From a virus: 64,000 nucleotides of DNA. A program made the position numbers and the translations under genes. Below, one piece after another: positions 18,818-50,206 of the stretch (positions within the stretch are counted from its first letter, which is position 1; every line of letters starts with the position of its first letter). The notes beneath the pieces are model-generated. The model saw only the letters and a program-made list of their open reading frames with translations, did no database searches and was not told the origin of the DNA. Where the stretch lies: positions 49,847 through 113,846 of IMG/VR virus record IMGVR_UViG_3300035438_000194; one strand, 5' to 3'.

Positions 18818-21800
18818 ATGATTTGTAAACCTGACGGAACATACGAGATAGAACAATCTGATATTGATAAAGTTAATAAATGGGTATATAAGCTTCTTAG
18901 CACTAGAGCTACTAGCGGTACCCGTACTTTTGACCTTAATGCTTTTGTTAAGTATGTATATACCAGAAGTTTAGAAAAAACAAATGATGCTCAAAAGGCA
19001 TTAACAATTGCTAGACAGGTTCCAATTGCTATTGATCTTGTTATCAGCGCTGATCCTGATCTTAGAAAAGGATTAGCTGCTTTACAAGGTTACTCAAGAG
19101 ATGCAGTTGATGCTATGGGAGATTCTTTCTTAGAGTCTATGACTGCTGTATCTGATTTGGTTAATACAGACCCTACTAAGAAGGATCTTGCTAATACCTT
19201 AGCAGCAACTGCAAATGTAGAATTGTTACAACCTGTAACTCCTACAATACAAGCAGGTGCATTAGAGACTGGTAGAGAACTTGTAAGTGATTTGCCTTAT
19301 ACACCTCTCAGTACAACTGGTAATGAAGATATACCAGGTAGAGAATGGTACTATGGTTTTATAAAGAATATTAGCAATCAAGATCTTGGATTAAGTAATA
19401 CTGGTACTGCATCATACTTTGGTGTTAAAGATGGTATCCGCATTGCTATGGTGCTTGGTAGTCAGATTCCTGTAGATCAGTTATACTTGGATGTACAGAA
19501 TCAAACTGACATTGAAGACATAAAAAAGAATCAGTTGTTTACTGTAGTTACAGATAATGCTGGAAACTTTGTATACTTTAATGAGAACTATGAGGTAACT
19601 GATGCTGAGAATGGTAAACTAGTATACTTCCCTACAAGAACTATCCCTTCTATGAAGGTAGTAGATGGACGCAAGGTGTTTAATCTAGGTGAGCAATCTG
19701 ACCGTACTGTACAAAGTATTAAGGATAAAGTGCGTAAAATAATGGCTGACGCTCCTTTGCTTAAAGAGAAAGATGCAAGAGAGCAAGTAGAAGTAGAGTT
19801 CCAAGGAGCCTACAGTCTACTTAGTGATATAGCAGATCATTTACAAAATAATCCTTCAGATAAGGTATTACTAAACTTGACTGGTATCAATAAGGGTACA
19901 TTGCGCTATGACCAAGATACGGTTACTCCGCTATCCTCTATCAAGAACTTAGGCGCACTGAATCTTAGGATTAGAACAACTGGCGTTAGTTCTGAAGGAA
20001 CCAAACAAGAATTTGAAACAAGAAGATATCTTGCTATTGATGGTGTATCAGACAAGATAGGATTCTCTATGAACAGCTTTAGTACAGCAATGGCCTCTAA
20101 AGTAGCTGACTTATTAGTCAATGATGTTTATACAGAAGATGGCACTCGTTTGTCTACAGATGACAAATACAAGATGATAAGAACCTTTGTACCATTGGGT
20201 ACTACAGGTCTTACTATAGTTACGGCAAATAATGAAATCAAGATTGGTGGTAATACAGTAGACTTATCAGATAAAGCTGCAGCAAAAGCAGCTATAGTAG
20301 AATTCCTTACAAGAACCATTAAAGTAAATGATTCAAAAGGGAACGAGATAGAGATTAAAAACCAACTGCGATTTGACGGAAAGACTTACGAGGCTTCTAA
20401 CGGAGTCATTGATGATTTTACTATTACACCAGCATCAGATGGAACATACACAGTTGCTAGCAATTTAGTTGACTACAAGACTTGGCTTAAGGATAATGCT
20501 TATATCAAAATACAACTTGACTCTAACGGTAACGTTACACAAGTTAATGGTTACTTTGAATTCAATGCAAGTCCTGAGACAAGAAAAACTATAGCAAGTA
20601 GACAAGTTGAGCAGATGGCTGTACCTAAGAAAGGTGGAGATCTTTCTTTGAACGGTTTGACTGCACCAACAGTTGAGGATAAAGAAAACGCATTAGCTAA
20701 AATTAGAGAAAGAGCAAAGGGTAGAAACAACAAACCTTTGTTCTCAATGCGTCATGATTCATTAGCTGCAAACAAGGCTCAGATTAGACGAGGTAAGAAG
20801 TGGTTTGATACTACTGAAATTAAGTTTAAAGATGCAGACGGAAAAGTTGTAACTAAGAAACTATCAGAGATTGTACCTTATGAGGTTATGTTTAACGTGA
20901 TCAACAGCAATGGTGATATACGTGCTACATGGACCCGTAATGGTATTACCCTTTTCAATGGATCAGACTATACAGACCTTTACCATGAAGCATGGCATGG
21001 CTTTACTCAGTTGTTCTTAACTGCTGATCAGAAGACTGCTTTGTATAATGAGGTAAAGAGTCTTAAAGAAGACATTAAGTACTATGATCATAAGGCTGGA
21101 GAATGGAAGACCATGAACTCCAAAGACTTAGATTTTAGCGACAGAAATCATATTATATATGCTGAAGAATATCTAGCAGACAAGTTTAGAAAATATTCAA
21201 TGGACAGATCTGCACCAAGTGCTAAAGTTAAGTCCATCTTCAGAAAGATATGGGATGCTATTAAAGCATTGTTTAGCAGAAGCACTAAAGAATCTGCGGC
21301 TAACCCATATAACAACACATTAATAAATCAAGCATTTGACCAGTTATATACTGGTAACTTAGTTGACTATACATTTGATCAAGCTAACATTCAGTTTGGT
21401 CAGTTAAACTATGGTATAACAGCCATTGATAAAGATTTAAACGGTATAGAAGGTCTTAGTGTTGAAGACTCTCTTGCTATATCAGAAGGTATAAACCACT
21501 ACATAGCTGAGTATATTGATATGGCGGTAGCTGGTCTAGTATACGGTGATGCTAATCCTGCATATAGTTCTTTGATCCTAACGGACGCTGAGTACAAAAA
21601 GGAAGCATTATTTTACGCTAAGGATATGTTACAGGTTCAGCTTGATAAACTTTTAGCTGAGTATGGTACAAAGGTTTCCTACGAGAAGCAAATAGCTGAG
21701 AGACAAATCAAAACATTAACATTTGCTATTGATCAGTTTGGTGATCTAGATGATTTACGTAATAATAAGAAAGGTACATTAGCATTCTTTAATAAGAAGA

Positions 21801-24800
21801 CCGGTTACTTAGATCTTACTACGTATAAGACTGATGATAATACAGATGATGCTACTGAGGAGGATGACGATGATTCTGGAAGACCAACAAAGTCAAAGGA
21901 CAGAACTGGTATGTATGCTGGTAACGGTACGGAACTTTCTGGTCTTGAGAGAATGGACTCAATATTAAAGTTTGCATTCTCAAACATAACAGAGATAGGA
22001 CCTGATGGGATAAAGCGTAATCAGATGGGTCTTCCTGTAATGGCTTCTTCAAAAACAATCTTCAATATGGTTTCTTCCCTTACGGAGAATCTTAATGATA
22101 GAGAGGAAATGTATAGAGCCATTTGGAATAAGTCAGAGGAGAAAGAAAGAAATGGTGAGCCTACACCTATGGCTCAAATGCTCAAGCAGTTCCTAAGCAA
22201 AGTAGGAGAGCCTAAGGATGCTACAAGCGGTATTGCGCAATTGTTTTGGAATAAAGTATTCCATGGTTTACGTACAGACCGTTTAACGAGCATACAAGTA
22301 AACATTAATAAGACAAAATACGGTCACGAAGTTATAGTTGGTGAGACTGACTCTTCTGATAAAGCTATCTTAAGAGGTTGGCAAGATGCCTTTGTGTTTA
22401 ATAATAAGTCTGATTATCTTATTGTAGATCCTAAGACTAATGAGAAGTACTTAGACCTGAAAGCATTGAATGCAAAGTATGGTAATATTGGTCCGGGTCA
22501 GCCTATTGAAAGTATTGACCAAATCAATCCTTATCAATTCTTTAAAGATTTTGGTATTCTCATAACACCAACTAATAAGAATCTTAAGGCTATAAGAGAT
22601 CAAGATATTATAAGAACTCTACTTAGATTTAGGCTTGCCCCTTTAATGAGGATTCCTGATTTAAAAGTAACTAGCTATAATAGTCTTTTTATGGAGAACC
22701 ATCCTTACATTGATGCTAAGGGTGAGAAGTCGGTATTACAAGAACAAGGTGGTGTAATGAATAAATTACTAGCACTTGAGTCAAAAGCCAATCCAAAGTA
22801 TTCTGACTACATGCGTTTGTTTGGTGCTGATGCAAGAAGTGAGAGATCAAATCCAAGCGGTCCAGGTAATACACTCATTGCTTTAAATAAAGCAGGTAAC
22901 TTCAATAATATAATATCAAGACCTGAGCTTAGTCAATATAACCCTAAGAAGAATCCTGCAGTTAAGACATCTGTTATTTTTAATAAGATGTTCCCTAGTT
23001 TAGGGGCAAGAGATCAAAGATACAGTCTTGACTACCAAGCAATGTTAGGTACTCAGTATATTGATAAGAGAGCGGGTATTGATACATTAGTAACTAGTCT
23101 AGCATCAGCAGAATCAGATGAGCAAGTAGCATATCTACGTGACTTCTTCTCTTTCTCATTGCATGGTGCAGCTGAAGCGTTCAAGCATGCTGATAAGAAC
23201 ATGGCTTATATCGTACAGCTACTTGGTCCACAAATGTTCTATATACCCATAGCAGACTTTGCAAAAGGTACTGGAGAAGGTAACACAGGAAAACAAGCTG
23301 CAAACAAAATTATAACTGGTTACATAGCTGCTGAGTTAGAAAGAATCAAGAAGGTACTAGCTAGTAAAGAACTTACATCTGGTGAGAAAGCATCAGACAT
23401 TATATTATATACAGATTCAGAGGCAACTGTAAAAGATGAGGATGGTTTAATCAGAGAAGTAAAGTATAAAACACTAGCTGATGTTGGTGTTGAGTTTACC
23501 GTGTTTGATGACATCCTATCAGATGATTTAAAGGCTAGACTTATAAATGATAAGAGTATTCAGACAGTTGAAGACTTCCTAAAGTTATTATCTGGTGATA
23601 AAGCCTTAGAACAAAGCATTCACAGAGAGTTAAATACTTACTTTGCTAAGCTGGTAAAAGAAGATAGAGACCAACTTGAGTCTTTTGAGTTCTTTAAAGG
23701 CGCTAATAAAGCTAAGTCACTTAGTACTATTAAAAACAGATCGTTTAAAAATAGTAGTCTTAGTACTGATGAAATCTTTGATGCATCAGTGTTACACTAT
23801 GTGTATGCATCATTCATCCACAAGATGGAGATGAGCACCTTGTTCTATGGGGATGCTGTTATGTTCCAGCATGATAAGGATGAGCATATGAAAAGGATTC
23901 CTACATTCTTTGCTACAGGAAAGATTCCAGTGTTTGATGACACTATGGAAAACTGGTTGTTATCATCAGCAGGAGGTTACTATAAATCTGAGTTCTTTAA
24001 AAACTCTGGGTTGACTCAACCTACTAGTAATCAATTAGTTACAAGACAATTGAATACTGCTATCCTTGAGGATGCCATAGAAAGTATATCAAAAGAAGCC
24101 TTTGACCAAATGGTGGAGGCGTACCTAAAAAATAATCCAGGAGCTACAGAAGCTGAAGCTAAAGCTAAGTACAAGTCATATAGGAATATGAAGTCAGCGG
24201 ATGCTCAAGGATGGATTTCCTTTGATGCTTACCGTGCTTTAGAAATACGCTTAGACAACTGGAGCCCTGCTAAAGAAGTAGTATACCAAGAGGTGTTAAA
24301 AGGAGAGATCAGTGACCCTGAAATACTTGAGACATTCTTCCCTGTTAAGAAGATGCAGTATGCTGGACCTATGGGTACTGAGAACTTTGCGGCTAATGCT
24401 GTACACAAGTACTCATTGATGCCTTTGATTCCTACTATTATTAAAGATACAGAGCTCGAGAAACTACACAATAAGATGGTTTCTCAGAACATTGCTTACT
24501 CTGTAATGCACAGTGGTTCTAAGGTTGCTAGTATAGGTAATGGTAATAAGTTAAGTAAGTTCTACACTGAACCGAACGGTAACCGCACATTGGCATTTAC
24601 TGCTCCTGATTACCAGTTCTCTTCTAGTGTTATCTACTTAGATTACTTTAAAGAGCAGCTCGTAACACATGATACTGCAAAGGGTAAAGTAAAGTTCCCA
24701 ACACAGAAACGTGCATTGGTTACATCTGGCCTTGATGAGTTTGGTGTACCTACAGACTTTGAAGTAGGTAGCACTGATGATGAAAGATTAACTGCTTGGA

Positions 24801-27800
24801 ATGCGCTGCCTGATGAGAAAGCTAGACTAAAAGCATCTAAAGCATATACCCTTAAGAGAAACTATCAAAAGGCATTTAAAGAACTATTTGATACAGCTAA
24901 AGACAAGTTGAAGATGGAACTTGGTTACAAGGATCCTAAATCAACTTCAAAAACAGAAGGTCTTAACTTAGAGAAACTTATGGCTTTTGTAGAGGAGCAA
25001 CTCCTTAACAGAGAGACCTTGTCTGAGTATGAGTTAGACTTTTTGCAAATGAGCCCTAGCGGTCAGTTGATTTATCCGCAAGACTTTGGTTCAGATCCAT
25101 CACAGATTGAAAAACTTATATCATCATTGGTCAATAAGAGAATTACTGACCAGATGTCTAGAGGTGAGTCTTTCATCCAAGTGTCTAGTGTTGGTTTTAG
25201 AAAAGCTGATTTGGCAGCAGATTCTAGTTTATTATTCTACCGTATAGGACCTGATGGTAAAACGTTACCAATGCAGGTTAAGATACCATTGATGGGTGAC
25301 TTTAAAAACCTATTGAACCATGTGGACAATGATGGTAAAAAGATTGGTACCCTGGCTCGTTTAAATGAGTTGATCAAGGATGAGAAGTGGATGAATGAGA
25401 ACCGTGAAATGCTTACTATGGGCGGTGACCGTATTCCAATTCAGGGTCACAACTCTATGGAGGTTATGGAAGTAGCTGAGTTCTTTGATCCTGCTGGTGG
25501 TAACATGATGGTATTACCATTAGAGATTGTTGCTAAGACCGGTGGTGACTTTGACATTGATAAGCTTATCTGCTTGATCCCTGTTATCAAAAACAACATG
25601 GGTGTAGTAGAACTATCTAAACCCACTAAGACCCGTAAGGTACTTAAGACTATTGTTAAGGAGAAGAGTGACTTGTATAATGAACTTAAGGCTTTAAGAA
25701 AACAATATATTAAAGAAGAACTTACACCAGAGTTTAGAGAAGAAATTAGTAAACTTGAAGATGAGCAAAGAGCAGCTCAGCAAGAGTTTAATGAAAATTA
25801 TATTAATGATTACTATGTAGGCGGATCATTAGATAAGTATATGAACCGTATCAACAGTGCTCAACAAACTATTGATGCTATATATGATCAACTCTTTGAA
25901 GACAGGAAAGAAGTATTCCAAGGTGAATTTGATCAGTATATTGATGAGGCTCAACCTATACTTAATAAGTTACGTGAGTTAAACAGACAAGAAGATACAT
26001 TCAGTCCCGATGCCTATCAGAATAATCTGATGCAAGCAATGAATGATATATTACTAAGAGGTGAAAACTTTACTAACCTTACACTTCCTAATGATACAGA
26101 GACCTATACAGCTAAGGGTGGTATTGTTGATGAATTTACAAGTGTAAACAGACCTTATCAAAGAAGTAATAATAAGACTAATAACAGAAGAAAGAAAATG
26201 TCTCCTACCCGTATCATGGAGAATCGTTACAACAATGTTAAAGCATTTGCAATGAGTGCGGGTAAGAGCGGTGTAAGTTTGGGTGCTAAGACTAACAAGA
26301 TCTTTATAAAATATAAAGAGGTTGGTTTGTACTTTGAACCTACTTATACAGCTATTAAAGGAAACAAGCAGTACCCTATTAAGCAAAGATTACTAGTAGA
26401 TCATAAGACTGTTTTAGTTAATGGTAAACGAGCAATCTCTATGGGGCATGGTAAGGATGTGAATGGTAAAGATATTTCAGATCAGATCTCTCAGTTGATG
26501 AATGGTTACTTAGACGTAGCTAAAGAAGACTGGGTATTTGATATCAATGCTGTAAAAGAATTAGAACCTGAGTTCTTATTATTGTTACAGGCGGGTGTTG
26601 GTCCTAGAATGGCAACAGCTTTAATATCACAACCTTTAGTTAAGAAGTATGTAGAAGCTATCCGTAAGAGAAGTAATGCATTCTCATTAGCTGTTAGTGA
26701 TAAAGAAACTTCTTTAAGCTTTGCTAAGTATGAAGCCTTGTTAGAAATATTGGACAAAAACATGCCTGATATATTCAACTATGCTGATGCACCTGTAAAT
26801 CAGGAAACTGGAAATATTATAACTCCATCAAATGAAAAGTTATTGTTTGATGCGCAAAGGTTTTTAGGTAATCGCGGAAACTTTAATATTGATGATCTTA
26901 TAGCTAATGCTAAGAAGGGTCCTGATTCTGGAGTCACTGGATATGATATAGAGGCATTTGCTCACTTCATGGAGATCATGGATCTTACTAAAGGAGACAA
27001 AGAACTTAAGCAAAGCATAGATATTGACACTAAGAAGCAATTGACTGCGTTAGATGCGACTAAGAAAATTAATGCGCTTAAAGACCTATCTGGTAGATTC
27101 CCTAAGAGTAAGATTAAAAGTCTTCTGGATGACACATATTTATCTAACTTTAAGACTCAGGGTCTTCTGCTTGAAGCTATTTCAAAAGTGTTACCATTAC
27201 GAGGTTTAAAATCTTTAAATGACTTTGCATACGATCTTAGTAAGAATAAAAAGTTTGATGATCAGAAAGCAAGAGAGAACTATGAAAAGAACTTGATTGC
27301 TGACTTTCCTTCTTACATTGCAGCTAATGCTAGACCACGTGTAACTAGTAATGATGCAAGTTATAGAGGTGTTGAAATTGAACAAACTATACCAATCAAT
27401 AAGCAAACATTACTTAAGTTTGGAGCTATCTATATGGATGGTGCTCTTCAAGTAGACCAGACTCAGATTGACATTGACTTTGATAACAGAGCTTATACTA
27501 AAGATGGTTATGGAGACGGTCTTCTTGCTAAACTACCACCTACCGTATTCTCAGAATATGATAAAGGTAAAAAGACTGCTAGAAACTTATACAGAGCATT
27601 TGTATTTGAAAGAGAGATAGCACGTGCAGCATTCCCTTATACTGAGATAGAAGGCACTGATGATCAGTTTGAGTTATTTAGAGCAGAGTTTCAAATGTAT
27701 CAAGTAATGCGTATGAACACCCCTGGTGGTGCAAAGCTTGACCTAGTGGATCAGTATGAAGAGTTTATCAGAAACAAAGCATTATATAATGCAGGAATTG

Positions 27801-30800
27801 ATGCTGGTAGATTTATGTCTATGCCTAGCATGGGTATCTTTAGTATGTATGATACTTTCTCAGCTATACTTAACCAGGCAAATATTCAAGGTGTAAATCT
27901 AAAAGAACAGTTCCCTGTATTAGAAAGCCTTAGACAAACTGAAGTAGAAGGTAAGAAGTTTAACTTTATTACTTTAGCTAGAAAGGTTAAAGATGTAGAT
28001 GATCGTACATCATTTACAGCACAGTTGCTTAGCTTGATGAATCCTAATGTCCGTAAGGTTGGTAATGAAGGTTTCAATCTTGCTATCAGTTCTTTCTTTG
28101 CTAAGTTCCCAGAGATGGCATTTGCCCAAGCTGGTAACAACAGTGCAAGTGGGTTATACATTGGTTCAATCGTAGACGCTAAGTCTATAGCAGTTGCCCA
28201 AGCGGACAACTTAAATGAGTACATTGAAGCCCTTAAGGATCCTGAAACAGCTAAAAACATCTTAAATGACTACGCTAGAAAGTTTGAGCAAAAAGCTCCT
28301 TACAAAAACAAAGCAGCTTATTTTAACTATAACAGTAACAAGGATATCACTGATTATATTCCTGAGGCGCTACCAGAAGATGCATTATCAATTGCAGAAT
28401 CAGAAGTAAAGAAAGAGCCACACTGGAGAAAGGATGAGGCTATGGCCAATGCTTCAACAAAGGCAATTGCTAAAGCTACACAGCCAAAAGATGTTACTTA
28501 TAGAAGTTCAACCAAAGCTTATCTAGAAGCCCTTGGCGGAGCATCTACAGACTTTACAAGTTCTGATGCTGTATGGATATTTGGAGCAGGTGCTTGGAGT
28601 GCTACAGCAAAGAATATCAAAGAAGACTTTGATAATTACTATGTACCTATGATCAATAGAGCCTTAGAATCAGGTGTCACTACCTTCAATATAGGTACAG
28701 CATCTGGTATTGATACTATGGCAACAGACTACTTAAAGAGTAAAGGCTTTACTGTAGAGTCACAGGGTGAGTGGAATAAACTTACTGGTGGACCGGTAAC
28801 AGCTGTTGAAACAGCTAGAACCATCTATGATAAAATTAATAAAGATCAAACAACGCAGTCAGAAAATGTAGTATTACCTAAAGATTTAGAAGACAATAAA
28901 ATATATTCAGGTAAGGAATTCTGGAATAAAATTGTACCAGAAGCGAGGGATATGTTTGATGATAAGGTAAATCCAAAAACAGGTCAGACAAGACCAATGA
29001 TTGTTGCGTATAGAGGTAGTCATAAAAAAACGTTTTTGCAGAACTACAAAGATGGCCTTACTGTAGGTAATCCTTTTGATTGGCAAGTTGAAACAGGCAC
29101 TGGGGATGAGAAAGGTATAAAGTCTACTAAACGATTTATACATTGGATGATTACCGGAGATAACATGGGGACAGCTGCAGCTACTCCAGAGTACAGACAA
29201 GCTATCATAGATGATATTAAGTCAGGTAAGATAAAAGGCAGTCCTATTCTTTACTATGCAGAGAAGAACTATGCTACTCACGCAACAGCTTTAGACTATC
29301 TGATCAATAAGCATGACTGGGATGCTCAAGCTCCCGGTGCTCGTAAAACTTATACTGGGAAAATAACTAGTTTGCAACCTAATCAAATATTTGTATTTGG
29401 TTCCAATGAAGGAAGTTCTAAAGGAGGTAAACCTACACATGGATCAGGTTCTGCTAAAGATGCTAAAGACAAATTTGGAGCTATTCAAGGTCAAAGCAGA
29501 GGAGCTCAAGGACAGTCTTATGCAATTGTAACTAAGAAGTTCTACGATGTAAAAAAGTCTAGCACTCCTCAAGAAATCATAGAAGAGATCAAAGGTTTAT
29601 ATGCATATGCTGAACAAAACTCTGATAAAGATTTCTTAGTATCTGACTACTCTGAGAGTAACCTTAATGGTTATACCGGGCAAGAGATGGCAGATATGTT
29701 TAATGCTGCTGGATCTATACCTTCTAACATTGTGTTTAATCAAAACTTTGATAAGCTATTACCTAGTACTCAAGCTCCTAGAGCTACTGTAAAAGGACCC
29801 GGTCCAGAGACTAAGATGAATATTTATGCCGGTACAGGAGAGAATGCTGAATTAAGTAACTTTGCTAATAGACCTTTTTTCCCTACAACTAATGGATTGG
29901 CACAAGCTAGATTTAATAATGTAGAAAGTGCATATCAAGCAGCTAAGATTCTATTCTATACAGATAAAAGTGATAAGGCTACACTTGAATATAATGCATC
30001 TCTATATAACCAACTTAAAAATACCAATGGTTCTCAAGCTAAATCTATAGGTAAAAATATTAGATCTTTAAACATTCAAGATTGGGATGCTAATTCTTCT
30101 AGAATAATGAAGGAACTGTTAAAACAGTCCTTTGAACAAAATCCAGATGCTCTTGCTAAACTTCTTGCTACAGGTAATGCTACTCTTACACATACACAAG
30201 ATAGAGGTAAGTGGGCTACAGAGTTTCCAAGATTGCTTATGGAGGTAAGAGAAGAGCTAAGTCCTTCTCAACCACAAGCAGCAGCTGGACCAACTGTACA
30301 AGCTGCCCAAGCTGCACCAGGTCTTATCATTGACATAAGAGGTCCTAAGGAACTAGTTGATTATGAGACTGGTGATTTGATACCTGTAGCTAAAGTATAC
30401 AAGCAGACTCAGTTCATTACAAAAAATGGAGACGGAGTGGAGATTGCTTATACTCTTCCTGAACAACTTGCTAAACAAATAATGGATGAGAATCCAAACA
30501 ATGTATTTGTATTTGATTGGTTCCGTCCTCACAGTACTGGTAAAGAAAACACTGCTGCAAGAAACAATACTAGACAAGCTTGGAGATCAGGTTTAGCAAC
30601 TGGACAAAGTTTTGGTATCACTACTAGAACCTTTGAAGGAAAAACACCAAGTGATGTACAGTTTGAAGGTGTTAAAAAAGTTATTGATGAGCAGATTGAA
30701 CAACTTGTACAACTCCGTGACTCAGGTAAGATCATTACCTTCCCTTCAGATGGTATAGGTCAGAACTTTAAAGGCTCAGGTGCTGATCGAATCTTTGTAT

Positions 30801-31009
30801 ATTTGTCTAAGAAGCTTCTTGAGAATTTTGGTTACAGAAATCCAGCGTTTGATAACATAAGCTTAGTACTTGGACCTTTAGAAGTAACAGGTACAGACTA
30901 TACGCAAGACTTCTATAAGAAGATGGCGGATGCTGAGTCTGGAGAAAAGGCTCAGACAGTTACAGACAATGAAGTTAGAGAACATATTAAAACGTGTAAA
31001 ATAAAGTAA
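18818..31009 (+). CDS. Virion RNA polymerase polyprotein (crAss-like) with N-terminal zincin and C-terminal accessory domains
   Basis: 4063 aa. Catalytic GGDFDIDK (DFDID at 25547-25561) is preceded by RIPIQGHNSM. HEAWH at 20984-20998. The C-terminus holds SLOG-like, DUF4326-like, macro-like and NADAR domains. Confidence 0.9.
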   Translation: MICKPDGTYEIEQSDIDKVNKWVYKLLSTRATSGTRTFDLNAFVKYVYTRSLEKTNDAQKALTIARQVPIAIDLVISADPDLRKGLAALQGYSRDAVDAMGDSFLESMTAVSDLVNTDPTKKDLANTLAATANVELLQPVTPTIQAGALETGRELVSDLPYTPLSTTGNEDIPGREWYYGFIKNISNQDLGLSNTGTASYFGVKDGIRIAMVLGSQIPVDQLYLDVQNQTDIEDIKKNQLFTVVTDNAGNFVYFNENYEVTDAENGKLVYFPTRTIPSMKVVDGRKVFNLGEQSDRTVQSIKDKVRKIMADAPLLKEKDAREQVEVEFQGAYSLLSDIADHLQNNPSDKVLLNLTGINKGTLRYDQDTVTPLSSIKNLGALNLRIRTTGVSSEGTKQEFETRRYLAIDGVSDKIGFSMNSFSTAMASKVADLLVNDVYTEDGTRLSTDDKYKMIRTFVPLGTTGLTIVTANNEIKIGGNTVDLSDKAAAKAAIVEFLTRTIKVNDSKGNEIEIKNQLRFDGKTYEASNGVIDDFTITPASDGTYTVASNLVDYKTWLKDNAYIKIQLDSNGNVTQVNGYFEFNASPETRKTIASRQVEQMAVPKKGGDLSLNGLTAPTVEDKENALAKIRERAKGRNNKPLFSMRHDSLAANKAQIRRGKKWFDTTEIKFKDADGKVVTKKLSEIVPYEVMFNVINSNGDIRATWTRNGITLFNGSDYTDLYHEAWHGFTQLFLTADQKTALYNEVKSLKEDIKYYDHKAGEWKTMNSKDLDFSDRNHIIYAEEYLADKFRKYSMDRSAPSAKVKSIFRKIWDAIKALFSRSTKESAANPYNNTLINQAFDQLYTGNLVDYTFDQANIQFGQLNYGITAIDKDLNGIEGLSVEDSLAISEGINHYIAEYIDMAVAGLVYGDANPAYSSLILTDAEYKKEALFYAKDMLQVQLDKLLAEYGTKVSYEKQIAERQIKTLTFAIDQFGDLDDLRNNKKGTLAFFNKKTGYLDLTTYKTDDNTDDATEEDDDDSGRPTKSKDRTGMYAGNGTELSGLERMDSILKFAFSNITEIGPDGIKRNQMGLPVMASSKTIFNMVSSLTENLNDREEMYRAIWNKSEEKERNGEPTPMAQMLKQFLSKVGEPKDATSGIAQLFWNKVFHGLRTDRLTSIQVNINKTKYGHEVIVGETDSSDKAILRGWQDAFVFNNKSDYLIVDPKTNEKYLDLKALNAKYGNIGPGQPIESIDQINPYQFFKDFGILITPTNKNLKAIRDQDIIRTLLRFRLAPLMRIPDLKVTSYNSLFMENHPYIDAKGEKSVLQEQGGVMNKLLALESKANPKYSDYMRLFGADARSERSNPSGPGNTLIALNKAGNFNNIISRPELSQYNPKKNPAVKTSVIFNKMFPSLGARDQRYSLDYQAMLGTQYIDKRAGIDTLVTSLASAESDEQVAYLRDFFSFSLHGAAEAFKHADKNMAYIVQLLGPQMFYIPIADFAKGTGEGNTGKQAANKIITGYIAAELERIKKVLASKELTSGEKASDIILYTDSEATVKDEDGLIREVKYKTLADVGVEFTVFDDILSDDLKARLINDKSIQTVEDFLKLLSGDKALEQSIHRELNTYFAKLVKEDRDQLESFEFFKGANKAKSLSTIKNRSFKNSSLSTDEIFDASVLHYVYASFIHKMEMSTLFYGDAVMFQHDKDEHMKRIPTFFATGKIPVFDDTMENWLLSSAGGYYKSEFFKNSGLTQPTSNQLVTRQLNTAILEDAIESISKEAFDQMVEAYLKNNPGATEAEAKAKYKSYRNMKSADAQGWISFDAYRALEIRLDNWSPAKEVVYQEVLKGEISDPEILETFFPVKKMQYAGPMGTENFAANAVHKYSLMPLIPTIIKDTELEKLHNKMVSQNIAYSVMHSGSKVASIGNGNKLSKFYTEPNGNRTLAFTAPDYQFSSSVIYLDYFKEQLVTHDTAKGKVKFPTQKRALVTSGLDEFGVPTDFEVGSTDDERLTAWNALPDEKARLKASKAYTLKRNYQKAFKELFDTAKDKLKMELGYKDPKSTSKTEGLNLEKLMAFVEEQLLNRETLSEYELDFLQMSPSGQLIYPQDFGSDPSQIEKLISSLVNKRITDQMSRGESFIQVSSVGFRKADLAADSSLLFYRIGPDGKTLPMQVKIPLMGDFKNLLNHVDNDGKKIGTLARLNELIKDEKWMNENREMLTMGGDRIPIQGHNSMEVMEVAEFFDPAGGNMMVLPLEIVAKTGGDFDIDKLICLIPVIKNNMGVVELSKPTKTRKVLKTIVKEKSDLYNELKALRKQYIKEELTPEFREEISKLEDEQRAAQQEFNENYINDYYVGGSLDKYMNRINSAQQTIDAIYDQLFEDRKEVFQGEFDQYIDEAQPILNKLRELNRQEDTFSPDAYQNNLMQAMNDILLRGENFTNLTLPNDTETYTAKGGIVDEFTSVNRPYQRSNNKTNNRRKKMSPTRIMENRYNNVKAFAMSAGKSGVSLGAKTNKIFIKYKEVGLYFEPTYTAIKGNKQYPIKQRLLVDHKTVLVNGKRAISMGHGKDVNGKDISDQISQLMNGYLDVAKEDWVFDINAVKELEPEFLLLLQAGVGPRMATALISQPLVKKYVEAIRKRSNAFSLAVSDKETSLSFAKYEALLEILDKNMPDIFNYADAPVNQETGNIITPSNEKLLFDAQRFLGNRGNFNIDDLIANAKKGPDSGVTGYDIEAFAHFMEIMDLTKGDKELKQSIDIDTKKQLTALDATKKINALKDLSGRFPKSKIKSLLDDTYLSNFKTQGLLLEAISKVLPLRGLKSLNDFAYDLSKNKKFDDQKARENYEKNLIADFPSYIAANARPRVTSNDASYRGVEIEQTIPINKQTLLKFGAIYMDGALQVDQTQIDIDFDNRAYTKDGYGDGLLAKLPPTVFSEYDKGKKTARNLYRAFVFEREIARAAFPYTEIEGTDDQFELFRAEFQMYQVMRMNTPGGAKLDLVDQYEEFIRNKALYNAGIDAGRFMSMPSMGIFSMYDTFSAILNQANIQGVNLKEQFPVLESLRQTEVEGKKFNFITLARKVKDVDDRTSFTAQLLSLMNPNVRKVGNEGFNLAISSFFAKFPEMAFAQAGNNSASGLYIGSIVDAKSIAVAQADNLNEYIEALKDPETAKNILNDYARKFEQKAPYKNKAAYFNYNSNKDITDYIPEALPEDALSIAESEVKKEPHWRKDEAMANASTKAIAKATQPKDVTYRSSTKAYLEALGGASTDFTSSDAVWIFGAGAWSATAKNIKEDFDNYYVPMINRALESGVTTFNIGTASGIDTMATDYLKSKGFTVESQGEWNKLTGGPVTAVETARTIYDKINKDQTTQSENVVLPKDLEDNKIYSGKEFWNKIVPEARDMFDDKVNPKTGQTRPMIVAYRGSHKKTFLQNYKDGLTVGNPFDWQVETGTGDEKGIKSTKRFIHWMITGDNMGTAAATPEYRQAIIDDIKSGKIKGSPILYYAEKNYATHATALDYLINKHDWDAQAPGARKTYTGKITSLQPNQIFVFGSNEGSSKGGKPTHGSGSAKDAKDKFGAIQGQSRGAQGQSYAIVTKKFYDVKKSSTPQEIIEEIKGLYAYAEQNSDKDFLVSDYSESNLNGYTGQEMADMFNAAGSIPSNIVFNQNFDKLLPSTQAPRATVKGPGPETKMNIYAGTGENAELSNFANRPFFPTTNGLAQARFNNVESAYQAAKILFYTDKSDKATLEYNASLYNQLKNTNGSQAKSIGKNIRSLNIQDWDANSSRIMKELLKQSFEQNPDALAKLLATGNATLTHTQDRGKWATEFPRLLMEVREELSPSQPQAAAGPTVQAAQAAPGLIIDIRGPKELVDYETGDLIPVAKVYKQTQFITKNGDGVEIAYTLPEQLAKQIMDENPNNVFVFDWFRPHSTGKENTAARNNTRQAWRSGLATGQSFGITTRTFEGKTPSDVQFEGVKKVIDEQIEQLVQLRDSGKIITFPSDGIGQNFKGSGADRIFVYLSKKLLENFGYRNPAFDNISLVLGPLEVTGTDYTQDFYKKMADAESGEKAQTVTDNEVREHIKTCKIK

Positions 31010-31010
31010 A

Positions 31011-34000
31011 ATGGCAAATAGTTGTGCATTTGGTAAGGATTGGGATGAGCTCGTAGAAGCGGTAGGTTTATTCCAAGCAAGTAAGGATTATATTGAGAAC
31101 AATGGAGAGGTTCGTACCCCTGATGAAGTAATAGCTAAGCTAGAAGCTAGAGGGGAATGGGCTGAAGAATCTACTCAGGACTTTACCAGACCAATGCTAA
31201 GAGGAACTGAGATGGACATGTTAGCTGAAATGGCTAACACTATCCCTGGTTTCTCTACTATATTTAATCCAATACACCTATCAAAGGCTGCTACAGACAT
31301 GCGTAAAGGAAACTCTACGCTAGACTTTACTATAGGCAACCTAAGTTCACGTCTTGGTATACCATACCAGATGGTTGATGAGGTAGAAGCACAAACTATA
31401 TTGGATAACTCAGGTACTCCTTATACAGGAGAAGCTGGTTTCTATGTAGGTGGTGTTGTATACTTTATCAAAGACAAGGTAAATACAGAGGTGGCATTCC
31501 ACGAGTTTGCTCACCCATTTGTAAGAGCTATTGCAAAAGAGAACAACGTGTTGTTTGAAAAGCTGCATGCAGACTTACTTCTAACACCTGAAGGCAGACT
31601 CTTAGAGAAACTAATGAGCAACCTTCACCCAGAATTAGAAGCGGGTGCAGAACTATACAAAGAGGAAATGTTGGTACGAGCTTTAACAAAAGCATCTGTT
31701 GACAAGAAGAATAATAAGAAACCATCTTCTGGCTTTGTTAAGTTCCTTAAAGACCTATTGTATGCAATCAAACAGGTTTTTAGAAAGTATGTAGGTAAAT
31801 CAGTTGCAATCTCTGAGCTTACACAAGACACAACTCTAGATGAGTTAGCTGATATTTATACAGAAGCTAATATAAACTTTGATATAGAGTTAGTTAACCA
31901 GAAGGATGTTGTTGCATTTATTAGAGAGACCCGTACTCAAGTTGATGATATAGTTAATATACTTAATACAGATGAGGGTGCTCAAGTTATCAAGAAGGGT
32001 CTAGATAACATCAATCAAGTAGTTAATGAGCATACTGACCGTCTTATAAAGAATAAGAACTTAGATGAAATGTTAGCTATTCTAGAGACAGGATTTGACC
32101 AAGCTGACTTACAAATTATACGTTCTAATATAACTCAGTACAGTAATCTTATAAATGCAAAGTTTACTACTCTTGCAGAAGAGAACAATCGTGTTCAACA
32201 GCAATCAGCAGCTTTTGTAAATACTGTTTTCCAGATCAAAGCAATGGCTGATAAGATGATTCTGCATATGCAGGAGTTATCTAAAAGAGAAACTGATCCT
32301 AGTAAGGTAAAGAAGTTCTACTACTATGAGCAATTGACTAATGACTGGAAGAGAACAATGGCTCAGATCCGTATTGACATGAGTAATGCTGGTATCCTAG
32401 AAGGGCCAATGCTTGATGTTATAGGATCTATTGAGACTAAGTTACAAACAGCTGATACAATTGCAGGACGTGTGCATCTTGAGGGCTCATCTGAATTACT
32501 TGAGAGTGTACTAGAACCACTATCTAAAGAAGTAGATAGATACTATAAAGAAATTATTGAAGAGTTAGAAAAGAAAGGTGCTCCTGATAGAATCTTGAAC
32601 CGTTACAAAGCGGAGTATGATAGCGCTAAACTTGACAAAGCTACACTTAAGAGCTGGTTATCAGGTGAGCAGGGAGACACAAACGTAATCAGTGCATGGA
32701 TGGAGTCATTCATGAACATACAAGACCCGGTTATATTTGGTCTTGCATCTTACGTAAACAACAATATGATGGATGTTATGACTACTGTACAACAGAAGTA
32801 TAACAGACAGTCACAAGATATTAAAGAACTTCTTGATTCAGTTGGTTACAATCCTAATAACCCAAAAGGGATATTAGATCTTGTAGGTTATACTGAGAAA
32901 GAAGGTACATATGGTAAGGACGGTAAGTTTGTAGAGAAAGAAAGAAAAGCTTTCATTCACCACGTTAAAGGGTATGACATAGAGATCACTCGTAAGAATG
33001 ATCAGATTAAACAAGCTGAGCTAGAGTTCAAGAAGACTGGAGACAGTACTGACCTAGACAGATTATATATTGAACGTGAAAACTTACTTAAAGATTTTCA
33101 CAGGGAATATTCAGAGGAAGTTTATGCTAAGGATGATCTTCTTAGCAAAGATGAGATAGGTAAAAAGGCCTATCTTGAACGCTTTAAGATTCTTAGTAAG
33201 ATACAGAACTTAAATGCTACACTTGAAAGTGCGGCAGACAGACATGATCCAGACTACCAGATGTCATTAGCTACATACTGGCAAGAGTATAAGCAATTAT
33301 ATTCTTTATCATATGCTGATGGTACTCAAAAGAAAGGTGATGATCTTGATGTTTCTGTAAGACTTAGAGAACATAGAGAAGCAACTAGAAAGTTCTATGA
33401 GTGGGTACCAAGAAAAGGTATGTTCCAAGGGGCTCTGAAGGCTTATGAGCAACAGATCCTTGATACTAATCCTAGTATTAAATACGGTGGCCCTGAGTTT
33501 AACAGACTACGTGAAGAGTGGCTTAACAATAATACAGTTGTTGCAATTAAACCAGAGTTCTTTAGAGACCGTCAAGTTATCTTAGATAGAATTAATGAAC
33601 TGAAGGCTAAGTTACCACAGTCTGTACAAGACCAGCTAAAGTTAGATGAGATCCTTAAGGAGATGAATGACCAAATCTCTGCTTACAGAGATGACAGCGG
33701 TCAGCCTGAAGGTACTGCAATGAGTGATACAAAACTTGCTCGATTGAAGGAACTACAAGAGCAGTTTGAATTGTATAAAGATGACCTTCTAACAGTACAA
33801 GGTGTAACTAAAGCTGATATTGCGTTTAAGAAACAGATTGATGCAGCTATAGTTGAGTATACACTTAGAGGTAAAGGAGAACATCCGTTAAGTGATCCTG
33901 ATGTAGCACTACGCTATGCTGATATTATCAATGATATGAATGACTTTGGTTTATCTGAAGAAGATGCAGCAGAGTTAACAGAGCTATATCAGAAGTTGTT

Positions 34001-36560
34001 TAGCATCTCAGATAAAGAAGCTACAGATGACTATATAAATGTTGTCAATGCTTTAATGCAACCAGGTAATGACCCAGATGATTCAATTGACGGTTCTTAT
34101 TTGTATGATACATTTAACTTAACATCATTTGATAAGAATACTATTGATGAAGTATTGACTGAAGAAGTAGCTAATACTTTAATGGGTCAGAGTTCTGCAT
34201 TTAAGAAGTGGTTCTTAGCTAATCATATCAAGACCGTGTTTGTAACAAACAGAGGTGACGAGATTGTAAAGTATAAAAGAACAGCAGCTTGGAGCGTAAC
34301 CAGACCGGTTGATGTAAAGTACTATGAGACTACAGATATCCTAGATGAAGTTGGTAATGTAGTTGAAACTATACAGCGTAAACCAAAGATTGATTACTTC
34401 AGAAGAAGGGTTAAAGAGGAGTATAGAACCAAGCGTGTTACAATGCTTGAAGCTTTGGAACAAGGAGACTTAAGCTTAGCTAATGTTGATCACAATGGTA
34501 ACTGGTTACCTAAAGCAGATAGTAAGTACCGTAATGAAGAGTACTACAATCTTAGAAACAGAGGTGGTAATGAGTTTAAGCTATTGACTACACTGCTTAC
34601 GTATCACTTGGAAAATCAACAAGGTCTTAATAGAAACTCTAGACTGGGTGTATTCATTCCAAGATACCGTAAAGAAAATAGAGAACTTTTAGTAGAAAGA
34701 GGAGGAGCTCAGAGTAAGTTATCAAGCTGGGCTAGCAATGTTAAAGCTAGCTTTAGTAGAGCTAAAGATGACATGGAAGATGGTTACAATCCAGAGATTG
34801 ACACAACCTTCATTAACTTAGACTTGTTTGATAACGAGATTACAGGTATTCCTATTTCTGGTAAGTATGACTTAGAACTAGATGAGACTTCAAATGATGT
34901 TCTTATGGGTATAATGCGTTATATGCAGAGTGCTGAAAGACACAAGAAGTTAATTGAAATCAGTCCTGAAGTGCGTGCAATTCAGAAAGTTGTTAATGGT
35001 TCTGAAGGAGCTATTAAAGATATGACTAAGGCTAGTAAGTCTGACTTTATTGAACGTAACTTAATGCGTTATGCAACTAGAAAAGGAACATCAGTAAGAG
35101 CCCAGACTGTTAATGCTTTTATAGAAAGAGAGTTTGAGGGTAAGACACAAGCTGGTGCATTAGCAGATCTAACAGGTCTTAATAAGACAGTAAACAATTT
35201 ACTAGGTCTTTCTTCTATGGCCTTCTTTGCATTGGATATACCATCAGCATTGAAGAACTCATTAGGAGCAAGATTCCAGTCCATCATACACGCAGCTGGT
35301 GGTAAAGACATCAGTGCTATGAGTTTAGGTAAAGGTACCCTATGGGGTAATATTACTTCAGCAGAGGTAAGCTTCCAGATTTACAGATATGGACCTAAGA
35401 GTCTTAATGTACAGTTGTATGAAGTGTTTGACCCGGACCAAAAGTTTGCGGACAAAGAAGGTAAGTTTGCAGAAGGTATGTCTAGAACATTCTCTAAGGA
35501 CGTTATGTCTGGTAGCTGGTTAACCAATACCAGAGAATGGACTCAGATGAATGCATCCCTAGGTTTATTTGGTGGGCTTATGTATCACCAAATGGTAGAT
35601 CAAACTATTGATGGCGTAACTAAACAGATTCCATACATAGAAGCATGGGAAGTTAAAGACGGTCAACTTACAGTTAAGGAAGGTATTGATAAGGATTGGG
35701 ATCTTGGGGGTAAGAACTTTAAGATGATGCGCGCTAAGGTACAAGGTGTAAACCGTAAACTTAACGGAGCATACTCCAAGTTTGATAAGACACAAGGTGA
35801 AAGATACTTACTAGTAAGATTAATATCATTCTTAAAGCGTCACTTTACAAGAATGTTCTTGAACAGATGGGGCTACAGAGGAAACTTCCTTGAGCCAAAG
35901 GCTAGATGGGATGTAGGTTCAAATGAAATGGAGATAGGTTACTATACACAATCAATAGCCTCTATTGTAAATGGTTTTAAGTCTGGAGGTAGAGACTTCA
36001 AGTATATGACCCAGAGAGAGAAGGTAGCATTCAAGAAGTTTGCTACTGAATTAGTTCTTGTATTAGCTGCAGGTATGCTTGTTAAACTTATCTTTAGCTA
36101 TGATGAGGATGACGAGGATCGTTTTGAGAAGTTGAGACAGAAGTCAGGACCGTTACCAATGCCTTGGGCAACTGAATCACCATACAAGTTTAACTTTAGT
36201 GGGTATATGTCTAACCAAGCGCTGTTCTTATCTAAGGCTACACTTAATGAGAACTCAGCATTCTTACCGTTTCCTAGTATGGGACTAGATGACTATAGAG
36301 CAATCTTAGACTTTAACTCTATTGCGTTTGGTAATACTCTATCTAACTACGTTAAGATAGTAGATAACTTAGCAGGTATGATAACAGGTGATGAAGGTGC
36401 CTACTATAAGAAAGATGTAGGTCCTTATAGCTGGCAGGATGAAGGTTCTGCTAAAGTATGGAACTATCTAGGTAAGAGTATTGGTTTATCCGGTTCTCAA
36501 GTTGACCCAGCATTACGTCTTAAGAATTTAGAATCAATACAAAACAGATTAAAAGGTTAA
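31011..36560 (+). CDS. Giant virion protein of the RNAP cluster with an N-terminal zincin (HEFAH)
   Basis: 1849 aa; AFHEFAHPF...EEMLV; third gene of the crAss-like giant triplet. Confidence 0.7.
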   Translation: MANSCAFGKDWDELVEAVGLFQASKDYIENNGEVRTPDEVIAKLEARGEWAEESTQDFTRPMLRGTEMDMLAEMANTIPGFSTIFNPIHLSKAATDMRKGNSTLDFTIGNLSSRLGIPYQMVDEVEAQTILDNSGTPYTGEAGFYVGGVVYFIKDKVNTEVAFHEFAHPFVRAIAKENNVLFEKLHADLLLTPEGRLLEKLMSNLHPELEAGAELYKEEMLVRALTKASVDKKNNKKPSSGFVKFLKDLLYAIKQVFRKYVGKSVAISELTQDTTLDELADIYTEANINFDIELVNQKDVVAFIRETRTQVDDIVNILNTDEGAQVIKKGLDNINQVVNEHTDRLIKNKNLDEMLAILETGFDQADLQIIRSNITQYSNLINAKFTTLAEENNRVQQQSAAFVNTVFQIKAMADKMILHMQELSKRETDPSKVKKFYYYEQLTNDWKRTMAQIRIDMSNAGILEGPMLDVIGSIETKLQTADTIAGRVHLEGSSELLESVLEPLSKEVDRYYKEIIEELEKKGAPDRILNRYKAEYDSAKLDKATLKSWLSGEQGDTNVISAWMESFMNIQDPVIFGLASYVNNNMMDVMTTVQQKYNRQSQDIKELLDSVGYNPNNPKGILDLVGYTEKEGTYGKDGKFVEKERKAFIHHVKGYDIEITRKNDQIKQAELEFKKTGDSTDLDRLYIERENLLKDFHREYSEEVYAKDDLLSKDEIGKKAYLERFKILSKIQNLNATLESAADRHDPDYQMSLATYWQEYKQLYSLSYADGTQKKGDDLDVSVRLREHREATRKFYEWVPRKGMFQGALKAYEQQILDTNPSIKYGGPEFNRLREEWLNNNTVVAIKPEFFRDRQVILDRINELKAKLPQSVQDQLKLDEILKEMNDQISAYRDDSGQPEGTAMSDTKLARLKELQEQFELYKDDLLTVQGVTKADIAFKKQIDAAIVEYTLRGKGEHPLSDPDVALRYADIINDMNDFGLSEEDAAELTELYQKLFSISDKEATDDYINVVNALMQPGNDPDDSIDGSYLYDTFNLTSFDKNTIDEVLTEEVANTLMGQSSAFKKWFLANHIKTVFVTNRGDEIVKYKRTAAWSVTRPVDVKYYETTDILDEVGNVVETIQRKPKIDYFRRRVKEEYRTKRVTMLEALEQGDLSLANVDHNGNWLPKADSKYRNEEYYNLRNRGGNEFKLLTTLLTYHLENQQGLNRNSRLGVFIPRYRKENRELLVERGGAQSKLSSWASNVKASFSRAKDDMEDGYNPEIDTTFINLDLFDNEITGIPISGKYDLELDETSNDVLMGIMRYMQSAERHKKLIEISPEVRAIQKVVNGSEGAIKDMTKASKSDFIERNLMRYATRKGTSVRAQTVNAFIEREFEGKTQAGALADLTGLNKTVNNLLGLSSMAFFALDIPSALKNSLGARFQSIIHAAGGKDISAMSLGKGTLWGNITSAEVSFQIYRYGPKSLNVQLYEVFDPDQKFADKEGKFAEGMSRTFSKDVMSGSWLTNTREWTQMNASLGLFGGLMYHQMVDQTIDGVTKQIPYIEAWEVKDGQLTVKEGIDKDWDLGGKNFKMMRAKVQGVNRKLNGAYSKFDKTQGERYLLVRLISFLKRHFTRMFLNRWGYRGNFLEPKARWDVGSNEMEIGYYTQSIASIVNGFKSGGRDFKYMTQREKVAFKKFATELVLVLAAGMLVKLIFSYDEDDEDRFEKLRQKSGPLPMPWATESPYKFNFSGYMSNQALFLSKATLNENSAFLPFPSMGLDDYRAILDFNSIAFGNTLSNYVKIVDNLAGMITGDEGAYYKKDVGPYSWQDEGSAKVWNYLGKSIGLSGSQVDPALRLKNLESIQNRLKG

Positions 36561-49006: not shown

Positions 49007-50206
49007 TCAATTAAGCTTTATCTGGGGTCCGGGCAAGTCTTTGTTTATACTCCCACGGGTAGATATTACCCATAGCATTTTGCCTCTTGGCTTTACAGAA
49101 CAATCACATTCACCATCAGTTAAGTATATCAAACAAGTATACTTATCTTGGCTATCATTATACAGTTCCAATACTGGATCAAAGTAAGTACCACCGCGTC
49201 CATGTATCTCAATCTTATCTCCTGCCTTGTATGGCCCGATATGACGGATATGTGTATCACATTGTACTACAGTAATCTCTGCACCAGTCTTATTAATATG
49301 ACCAATCTCATGGAAGAACTCTTGTACTTCCTTATCACTAACGGAACCGCTAGTATCTACAGCAACTAAGATATGCTTACGGTGTTTAATCTTAAGACCG
49401 GGGTTATCCTCAAATCTTTTATTAAACTTACGTCTAAGCTTCTTAGTAAATACTTTCTGACTACCTCCAGTAAAGCGTCTAAGATATGCTTTCCAGTCAA
49501 ACTTAGGTGGCTCTTTACTATTGAGTTTATCTAGTAGTCCTTTAAGTTCTCCAGGTACATGACCACGAGACTTCTCTACTTGTTCTGCAATCTCCTTAAG
49601 TTGATGCTCTACTTGTTTCTGTACAAGTTTCTTTTCTGCTTCACTCAGGTCATTAAATTCATCCCAGGTACTATGATCAGGAACAGGATTACCGTCACCA
49701 TAAGTTGGTTGACCTTGACCCATTGCCTTCATCATCTTCTCAAAATCACTAGTACCATTTCCTTGATCTAGCTGCTGTTGTAGTAGGTCATAATAAACTC
49801 TACAACCTGCTTTAGGAGGAAGATTCATTGGAGCAAACATCTCGTTATCAATAGTACATCCACCGTCTGGTAGATACATCTTATCAATATACTGGTTGAT
49901 CTCCAAGTCCATAGCCACATTGGCTAACTTCTTATCTGCAAAATCATCATGCATAGTAAGATGGAAGAATGCAATATGCAAGAGCTCATGTTTCAAGAGA
50001 CCAATGTGGTGCTCAGGACTCAAGCTCTCCCAGAATTCTTCATTGATTGCTAACTGGAAGTTGATGTTATGCTTAGACACACCAGCAGTTGGCACTCTCT
50101 TACTCCATAATTTATTTAAGCCAATGAGAAAGAGCCCATAAAAGGGCTCCTTTAACATCAGTTCTTTACTAGCCTTAGCTAGACTTTCTTGTTTTGTATG
50201 CTTCAT
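49007..50206 (-). CDS. Metallopeptidase-vWA protein (DUF2201-like)
   Basis: N-terminal KHELLH (HExxH) and NVAMDLEIN; C-terminal MIDAS motif DTSGS, GRGGT, LTDG. Confidence 0.85.
   Translation of the reverse strand: MKHTKQESLAKASKELMLKEPFYGLFLIGLNKLWSKRVPTAGVSKHNINFQLAINEEFWESLSPEHHIGLLKHELLHIAFFHLTMHDDFADKKLANVAMDLEINQYIDKMYLPDGGCTIDNEMFAPMNLPPKAGCRVYYDLLQQQLDQGNGTSDFEKMMKAMGQGQPTYGDGNPVPDHSTWDEFNDLSEAEKKLVQKQVEHQLKEIAEQVEKSRGHVPGELKGLLDKLNSKEPPKFDWKAYLRRFTGGSQKVFTKKLRRKFNKRFEDNPGLKIKHRKHILVAVDTSGSVSDKEVQEFFHEIGHINKTGAEITVVQCDTHIRHIGPYKAGDKIEIHGRGGTYFDPVLELYNDSQDKYTCLIYLTDGECDCSVKPRGKMLWVISTRGSINKDLPGPQIKLN

Follow-up and report, generated by a model that had tools for sequence, protein, structure and literature searches.

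Predicted NADAR and macrodomain-fold cassettes at a hypervariable C-terminal site of a crAss-type virion RNA polymerase

Among the phages of the human gut the Crassvirales rank first in abundance, and they also occur widely in the environment; the earliest of their enzymes to work in an infected cell is the virion RNA polymerase. In phage phi14:2 this polymerase, gp66, is a virion protein that transcribes the early genes; each Asp of its DFDID motif is essential, and its crystal form is self-inhibited and needs activation. Drobysheva et al. raise proteolytic activation of the polymerase and the cleavage of fused polyproteins (bioRxiv 10.1101/2020.03.07.982082). The three RNA polymerase-associated proteins of crAss001 were found in virions by mass spectrometry at their listed full masses (154-277 kDa), and their ejection by partial unfolding, ahead of the DNA, has been proposed (PMC10172136). 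Giant proteins that string together many domains have been described as polyvalent proteins of phages and conjugative elements, including fusions of the N4 virion polymerase (Iyer, Burroughs, Anand, de Souza and Aravind 2017, PMC5512222), and phage fusions of SLOG, Macro, NADAR and DUF4326 domains have been reported together with the proposal that they process derivatives of adenosine diphosphate ribose (ADP-ribose) early and are frequently packaged in the virion (Iyer et al. 2022, PMC9503650, section 3.7.4 and Fig. 5h). Phage NADARs reverse the guanine ADP-ribosylation by DarT1 and rescue phages from DarTG1, and AdfN-T4, AdfN-Bas32 and AdfN-Bas60 de-ADP-ribosylate DNA, by which DarTG1 is defeated (PMC11825919). 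Here we compare with these systems a giant gene in a stretch of 64,000 nucleotides (nt) of virus DNA (the window; positions 49,847 to 113,846 of IMG/VR record IMGVR_UViG_3300035438_000194, a complete 113.8-kb virus genome with direct terminal repeats), whose product is, by homology, a crAss-type virion RNA polymerase that ends in an array of five modules, three of which belong to ADP-ribose-processing kinds.

The gene occupies 18818..31009 on the + strand as a single open frame of 12,192 nt (all coordinates are window positions, and all features given below lie on this strand), and the array under study forms its 3' end. An earlier, preliminary description of this locus had taken the 4063-residue product, P0001, for a virion RNA polymerase, and this identity holds because of the DFDID catalytic motif at residues 2244-2248 (25547..25561), equal to 1361-DFDID-1365 of phi14:2 gp66, and because a profile of residues 2074-2378, built from 34 relatives, matches gp66 residues 1210-1572 in the Protein Data Bank (PDB; entry 6VR4, E 2.4e-61). 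The profile was required, as a phmmer search of the PDB with the whole of P0001 returned marginal NADAR matches only and did not find 6VR4. In the alignment of the DFDID region, D171, F172, D173 and D175 are all invariant in the 34 relatives, and DFD(I/V)D is present in almost all of the 120 giant homologues that we retrieved. We assign P0001 on these grounds to the phi14:2 gp66 family, and its packaging into the particle is most likely. With gp66 and with crAss001 gp47, gp49 and gp50 it shares the homologous catalytic region, the DFDID motif and a location in a giant-protein gene block adjoining lysis genes, whereas it is far longer than the 2180-residue gp66, from which it differs by some 880 additional residues at the N-terminus and by the array of 874 residues. 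Within the N-terminal extension, residues 723-727 (20984-20998) read HEAWH, which is an HExxH motif of the zincin type. The zincin-like domain of phi14:2 sits in gp65, a separate neighbour of gp66, and for this reason P0001 may be a gp65-gp66 fusion; the HEAWH region could also act as a self-processing protease.

The array comprises the last 874 residues of P0001 (3190-4063), in which five linker-separated modules, M1 to M5, follow each other in the order SLOG-like, DUF4326-like, A1S_2505-family module with a macrodomain fold, NADAR, and DUF7831/macro-like end module. The borders were marked independently by the points at which BLAST and hidden Markov model matches to the 120 giant homologues start and stop. 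The five modules were found within about 30 nt of the ranges proposed in the preliminary description, and every motif quoted there is present in the translation of the open reading frame. As detailed below, its names for the NADAR domain and, at fold level, for the first macro-like domain are firm, those for the second macro-like domain and, transitively through relatives, for the DUF4326-like domain are supported, and the SLOG-like name reaches a moderate level only. What it had missed is that M5 forms a constant C-terminus in this polymerase clade, as opposed to variable payload, and that M1 to M4 occupy a hypervariable insertion site. When all ten module pairs were compared with hhalign, M3 and M5 were the sole related pair (67%), every other pair staying below 6%. 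Profiles of M1, M2, M3 and M5 gave no match to the sequence of 6VR4, and a megablast search of the tail against phage records gave no match.

M4 (residues 3656-3825; 29783..30292) is firmly recognised as a NADAR domain with intact catalytic residues. Pfam PF08719 matches residues 3675-3796 (29840-30205) with E 6.9e-15 and 56.1 bits, against a cut-off of 35.1, and the catalytic Glu corresponds to E3703 (29924-29926), the catalytic Lys to K3710 (29945-29947), seven residues further on, and the third position to a His, H3792 (30191-30193), within the motif LTH. All three residues are 100% conserved over 58 homologous modules. The corresponding catalytic pair is E43/K50 in the enzyme of Phytophthora nicotianae and E36/K43 in T4 AdfN, and the third position differs between groups, with Glu in the YbiA type, Asp in NADARs associated with DarT1 and His in those of phages (PMC11543638). 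The closest described proteins are the AdfN proteins (T4 gp30.3, Bas32, Bas60; PMC11825919), which have the NADAR fold and the Glu/Lys pair in common with M4 and in whose T4-type clade a His replaces the Glu of the YbiA family, as it does here. They are free proteins made after infection, whereas M4 forms part of a polymerase that is probably packaged beforehand. It shows 34% identity to NADARs of T5-like phages; Pfam Phage_30_3, the family of T4 AdfN, gave no match to M4. ADP-ribosyl N-glycosidase activity is predicted for M4.

M3 (residues 3507-3655; 29336..29782) matches the NCBIfam model A1S_2505_Nterm (NF049995) with E 5e-25 and PHROG 2072 with E 2.5e-28. Pfam Macro (PF01661) gave no match for M3 itself and weak ones in three of 70 relatives (best E 0.095), and the assignment to the three-layer alpha/beta fold of macrodomains, which we consider firm, comes from the AlphaFold2 model. 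Built on a 70-sequence alignment, this model has a predicted local distance difference test (pLDDT) score of 94.4. The first Foldseek hit was TARG1 (2l8r; probability 1.00, E 4e-4, template modelling score 0.67), and macrodomains fill the top 13 rows among the matches listed. In a VIA comparison, ranks 1-25 were macro-fold chains with Z 8.1-10.6, mostly titled macrodomains, including DarG 5m3i (Z 10.6), alphavirus nsP3 (10.3), TARG1 (10.1) and Poa1p (9.8). The best structural matches of M3 are the macrodomains of TARG1 and DarG (2L8R, 4J5S, 5M3I, 5M3E; VIA Z 10.1-10.6 over 125-127 residues), at a sequence identity of 13-16%. DarG and TARG1 macrodomains strip ADP-ribose off thymine or protein. 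The motifs FVFGSN and H-G-x-G-x-A and residue T3572 are invariant in the M3 family, the Thr-Lys pair being kept as T3572 in 99 of 99 and K3573 in 84 of 99 sequences, and these motifs are compatible with a ligand-binding cleft.

The end module M5 (residues 3826-4063; 30293..31006) consists of a divergent DUF7831/macro-like core (30470-30766) and a conserved C-terminal extension. It reaches Pfam DUF7831 (PF25176) with E 1.7e-4 and 21.9 bits, under the cut-off of 27; nine of 12 relatives match this family, at best with E 1.3e-37, and PF25176 is present in the close homologues P0129 and P0130. Since hhalign links M3 and M5 at 81% (E 1.2e-5, 110 columns), the preliminary reading of M5 as a second macro-like domain is supported, and M5 is probably a divergent DUF7831 domain related to M3. 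A search of the PDB with the M5 profile gave no match. The motifs GSN and HGxGxA, invariant in M3, are absent from M5. The extension of about 80 residues ends in REHIKTCKIK and is strongly conserved, with the pattern FVYLSKxLLENFGYxNP followed by VREHIKxCK; Cys4060, three residues before the stop, is invariant in 23 relatives.

M2 (residues 3326-3506; 28793..29335) is made up of a leader and a core at 28955-29335 with the motifs GNPF, FIHW, ILYY and THATALDYLIN. P0001 itself gave no direct match for M2 in Pfam or NCBIfam, DUF4326 (PF14216) being absent at E<=10. The core family covers 58 viral loci, nearly always within giant open reading frames, and 16 of 42 M2-family members match DUF4326 at E<=1 (best E 4.5e-4), which supports, through these relatives, the view of M2 as a divergent DUF4326-like domain. 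Its AlphaFold2 model has a pLDDT of 91.6. Foldseek returned nothing for this model at E<=0.001 and a search of the ESM Atlas no usable match, while in VIA the best hit was 3g5j with a weak Z of 3.8, several rhodanese domains following at Z 2.0-2.5. DUF4326 has been placed in the rhodanese-phosphatase superfamily (PMC9503650). These weak rhodanese matches are compatible with a rhodanese-phosphatase-like fold and do not prove it, and we assign no fold. The leader, of about 50 residues (3332-3379; 28811-28954), follows the pattern TARTIYxK(L)GNKTQSENVV with W3369 and P3374, reads TARTIYDK..QSENV in P0001 and is kept in close relatives; distant relatives have a related motif, IYSQLGxKTQSENV, ahead of the DUF4326-like core, and the leader may be a separate mini-domain.

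M1 (residues 3190-3325; 28385..28792) belongs to a conserved family with 221 representative clusters at E<=0.001, mostly in giant proteins, and its C-terminal half is SLOG/YAcAr-like (VWIFGAG ... GTASGID). Compared with three phage YAcAr proteins by hhalign, M1 gave 71% over its residues 65-125 (E 3.8e-5, 53 columns), against less than 0.5% for M2 to M5 as controls on the same YAcAr alignment; the test used an alignment of three sequences and covered about half a SLOG domain. In this alignment, VWIFGAG...GTASGID falls onto strand 1, the helix, strand 2 and the GGAxGAD motif, and an ESM lead connects M1 to YAcAr/DprA clusters at 0.87. SLOG family models (PF10686, PF02481 and similar) found nothing at E<=10, whether in M1, in 12 relatives from the loci or in 27 small homologues, the M1 profile had no match in the PDB, and NCBIfam gave none that was relevant. 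The preliminary SLOG-like call draws on the profile-profile and ESM links; the name is of moderate strength and the least secure of the five. One small M1-family protein carries DUF4326 (E 1.2e-14). A further match of the M1 profile, over eight stretches of P0273, was dropped as spurious, P0273 being an ankyrin-repeat protein. The N-terminal half of M1 (residues 3190-3254; 28385-28580), KDEAMANAST.AIG ... SST.AY, lies outside the YAcAr alignment and matched nothing known. Its pattern is LSIxxSE..KDEAMANASTKAIG....SSTxAY, and D3206, M3209, I3217, S3230 and Y3235 are each at least 90% conserved in 162 sequences.

We then turn to the variation of the array among relatives. Twenty-five polymerases are collinear with the body of P0001 up to about residues 3120-3189, and their tails beyond this point range from 244 to 1543 residues. 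M5 ends 22 of the 25 collinear tails and is therefore the constant C-terminal end, before which the variable cassettes are inserted. The minimal arrangement of body and M5 only is found in P0012, P0016 has M4-M5, and P0006 shows a changed order, M1-M4-x-M2-M5; the five-module order of P0001 occurs in no other retrieved protein. Whatever its neighbours, a module always retains the leader and trailer that belong to it, short Q/A/P/T/S linkers join one module to the next, and inserts not covered by the five module profiles are interspersed in the tails of relatives. Precomputed Pfam annotation, at the protein level and with positions unmapped, adds AlkB-like 2-oxoglutarate oxygenase, ART-PolyVal (ADP-ribosyltransferase, ART), superfamily 1 helicase or DnaJ in some giant relatives, and M3-M4 occur together with a helicase in a large group whose members measure about 4900-5070 residues and come from contigs of about 98-100 kb. 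Taken together, there is a single hypervariable site between the end of the polymerase body (about residue 3185) and M5, at which modules are shuffled, lost and replaced.

Two RefSeq genomes extend this pattern. In Kolpuevirus hominis cr126_1 (L158, NC_055884.1; 8851-16059), a protein of 2402 residues, annotated only as 'DUF1768 domain-containing protein', has DFD(I/V)D at residue 1509 and a NADAR domain at its N-terminus (residues 50-202), and the same eraser domain is therefore fused to the opposite end of a polymerase. In Chuhaivirus simiae cr130_1 (L159, NC_055901.1; 1-10626), the polymerase coding sequence reads through 38 TAG codons (TAG=Q recoding) and shows, near its C-terminus, NADAR with E 5e-7 and DUF7831 with 28.3 bits, above the cut-off, as well as a weak match to Pfam Phage_30_3.

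The joints on both sides of M3 carry an imperfect 17-nt direct repeat. The left copy, CTCAAGCTCCCGGTGCT at 29325..29341, codes for AQAPGA at the M2/M3 joint, and the right copy, CTCAAGCTCCTAGAGCT at 29769..29785, codes for TQAPRA at the M3/M4 joint, 444 nt (148 codons) downstream, so that the two bracket M3 exactly. They share an exact 10-nt core, CTCAAGCTCC, and follow the consensus CTCAAGCTCC(C/T)(G/A)G(T/A)GCT, coding for (A/T)QAP(G/R)A; CAAGCNCC has just two sites in the 12.2-kb open reading frame, namely both M3 linker copies. As a repeat it does not stand out statistically, since chance alone would give about four exact 10-mer pairs within 2.85 kb and 25 families of this kind are listed, and its placement at both M3 borders is its sole notable feature. 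The M4/M5 linker holds the related CAAGCTGCACCAGGT.

Much of this recalls the polyvalent proteins (PMC5512222), in which giant virion-associated polypeptides likewise string independent conflict or effector domains, the domain sets likewise vary among relatives, and delivery with the DNA is predicted. Here, five modules share one polypeptide, their sets vary over 25 collinear relatives, and the gene lies among giant cargo-type open reading frames upstream of an endolysin. The carrier differs, being a crAss-type two-barrel (double-psi beta-barrel, DPBB) polymerase rather than the T7-like N4 polymerase of that work, and the cassettes occupy one defined site from the polymerase body to a constant end module; the text of PMC5512222 contains none of the words 'crAss', 'NADAR' and 'YbiA'. 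The fusions reported in 2022 (PMC9503650) combine the same four domain kinds and came with the same proposal of early processing and packaging, yet those proteins are typically stand-alone or small fusions, unlike the array here, and 'crAss', 'vRNAP' and 'virion RNA polymerase' do not occur in the text. In our literature search, no paper linked NADAR or DUF1768 to a crAss-type polymerase, and public records bear automatic labels only. Since earlier papers already describe the domain combinations and propose delivery in the virion, this case contributes a new carrier with a clear cassette site, and no new principle; most useful among its specifics are the evidence that the A1S_2505 module has a macro fold, the recognition of M5 as a constant end, and the defined cassette site.

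Our preferred reading, to which we give a probability of roughly 0.6, is that the array consists of autonomous cassettes in the style of polyvalent proteins, injected with the polymerase as a counter to defences based on nicotinamide adenine dinucleotide (NAD) or ADP-ribose. The array would be packaged, ejected with the polymerase ahead of or together with the DNA, and refold in the cytoplasm, where it would act before the expression of any phage gene. The NADAR module M4 would remove ADP-ribose from guanine in DNA, as left by DarT1-type attack, the macro-fold module M3 would remove it at other positions or degrade ADP-ribose-derived molecules, and M1 and M2, the SLOG-like and DUF4326-like modules, would bind or process other nucleotides derived from NAD. 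The cassette set would differ from one phage lineage to the next, following the defences of their hosts. An anti-defence payload had already been suggested in the preliminary description, and the suggestion fits the published packaging and ejection of homologues, the work on AdfN and the 2022 proposal of Iyer et al., but it is plausible only, as we infer both the delivery of the tail and its activity. Several observations weigh against it. Packaging of the tail, its survival of maturation cleavage, its ejection and its refolding are all extrapolated from distant relatives, presence in virions and ejection being known for phi14:2 and crAss001 alone, and the zincin-type HEAWH at residue 723 of P0001 itself bears on a possible maturation cleavage. 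No biochemical activity is known in any system for M1, M2 or M5, and M5 may not bind ADP-ribose, because GSN and HGxGxA, both invariant in M3, are absent from it. The Thr-Lys pair of M3 may correspond to the catalytic Lys of TARG1 and DarG.

The modules might instead service the chemistry of the phage itself, erasing or limiting ADP-ribosylation by a co-injected phage ART or clearing by-products of RNA repair (ADP-ribose-1''-phosphate, Appr>p). In some giant relatives (P0009, P0018, P0020, P0022 and P0033) the precomputed Pfam annotation does place ART-PolyVal beside these modules, Poa1p ranks near the top of the structural matches to M3 (Z 9.8), and Poa1p-type macrodomains and NADAR have been tied to RNA-repair by-products (PMC9503650). 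Yet neither ART-PolyVal nor KptA/Tpt1 was matched in the genome at E<=1, the three giant proteins gave no ART match in Pfam, and many relatives carry the modules without an ART. We rejected a writer/eraser pair with an ART in the same genome on these searches, and we hold a role in the phage's own chemistry to be improbable. It is also unlikely, in our judgement, that nothing enzymatic is injected, the array working in the producing cell or being removed before packaging, whether it serves late in infection to protect replicating or packaged DNA or as a cleaved appendage for assembly or targeting. Proteolytic activation and polyprotein cleavage were raised by Drobysheva et al., a zincin-type HEAWH lies within the same open reading frame, and the linkers are exposed Q/A/P-rich stretches, all of which would suit removal; against this, the constant M5 sits beyond the variable cassettes and still forms the very C-terminus in 22 of 25 tails, which is hard to reconcile with routine loss of the tail, and the crAss001 RNA polymerase-associated proteins are present in virions at their listed full masses (154-277 kDa).

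A role as ligand sensors, with the SLOG-like and macro-like modules binding NAD-derived signals and tuning the activity of the polymerase or its release from self-inhibition, would draw on the sensor function of SLOG and some macro domains (PMC9503650), on the self-inhibited crystal form of gp66 with its need for activation, and on the absence from M5 of the motifs invariant in M3. The catalytic residues of the NADAR module are all kept, however, with 100% conservation, and an integrated allosteric role is hard to square with modules that are freely shuffled and lost on polymerase bodies that are nearly identical, so that we regard this explanation as very improbable. Finally, it is tempting to speculate, although we consider this extended version unlikely, that the gap between body and M5 is a dedicated, recombination-prone 'effector slot', in which short in-frame Q/A/P linkers (such as the CTCAAGCTCC pair) permit swaps of ready-made cassettes, and that erasers tethered to the polymerase clean the template during transcription. 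Because the polymerase is the first enzyme on the incoming DNA, tethered erasers would clean lesions of the template as it is transcribed, which would amount to a transcription-coupled, pre-loaded repair of defence-inflicted DNA marks.

If the tail does deliver ADP-ribose erasers, as in the preferred reading of an injected counter-defence array, DarT-type or NAD-signal-based immunity would be neutralised ahead of transcription, a route distinct from that of known counter-defence proteins, which need prior expression. The cassette set could then serve as a readable marker of the host defences that each lineage faces. The array is also a source of uncharacterised enzyme families, namely M1, the DUF4326-like module and DUF7831.

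P0001 is the middle one of three consecutive giant open reading frames (2919, 4063 and 1849 residues), after which an endolysin-like gene follows. The flanking two, at 10038-18797 (2919 residues) and 31011-36560 (1849 residues), gave no Pfam match at E<=0.01 and no PHROG match at E<=0.001. Directly after the giant block, an open reading frame of 181 residues at 36580-37125 matches PHROG 3000 with E 1.7e-38 and the endolysin family PHROG 33083 with E 1e-15.

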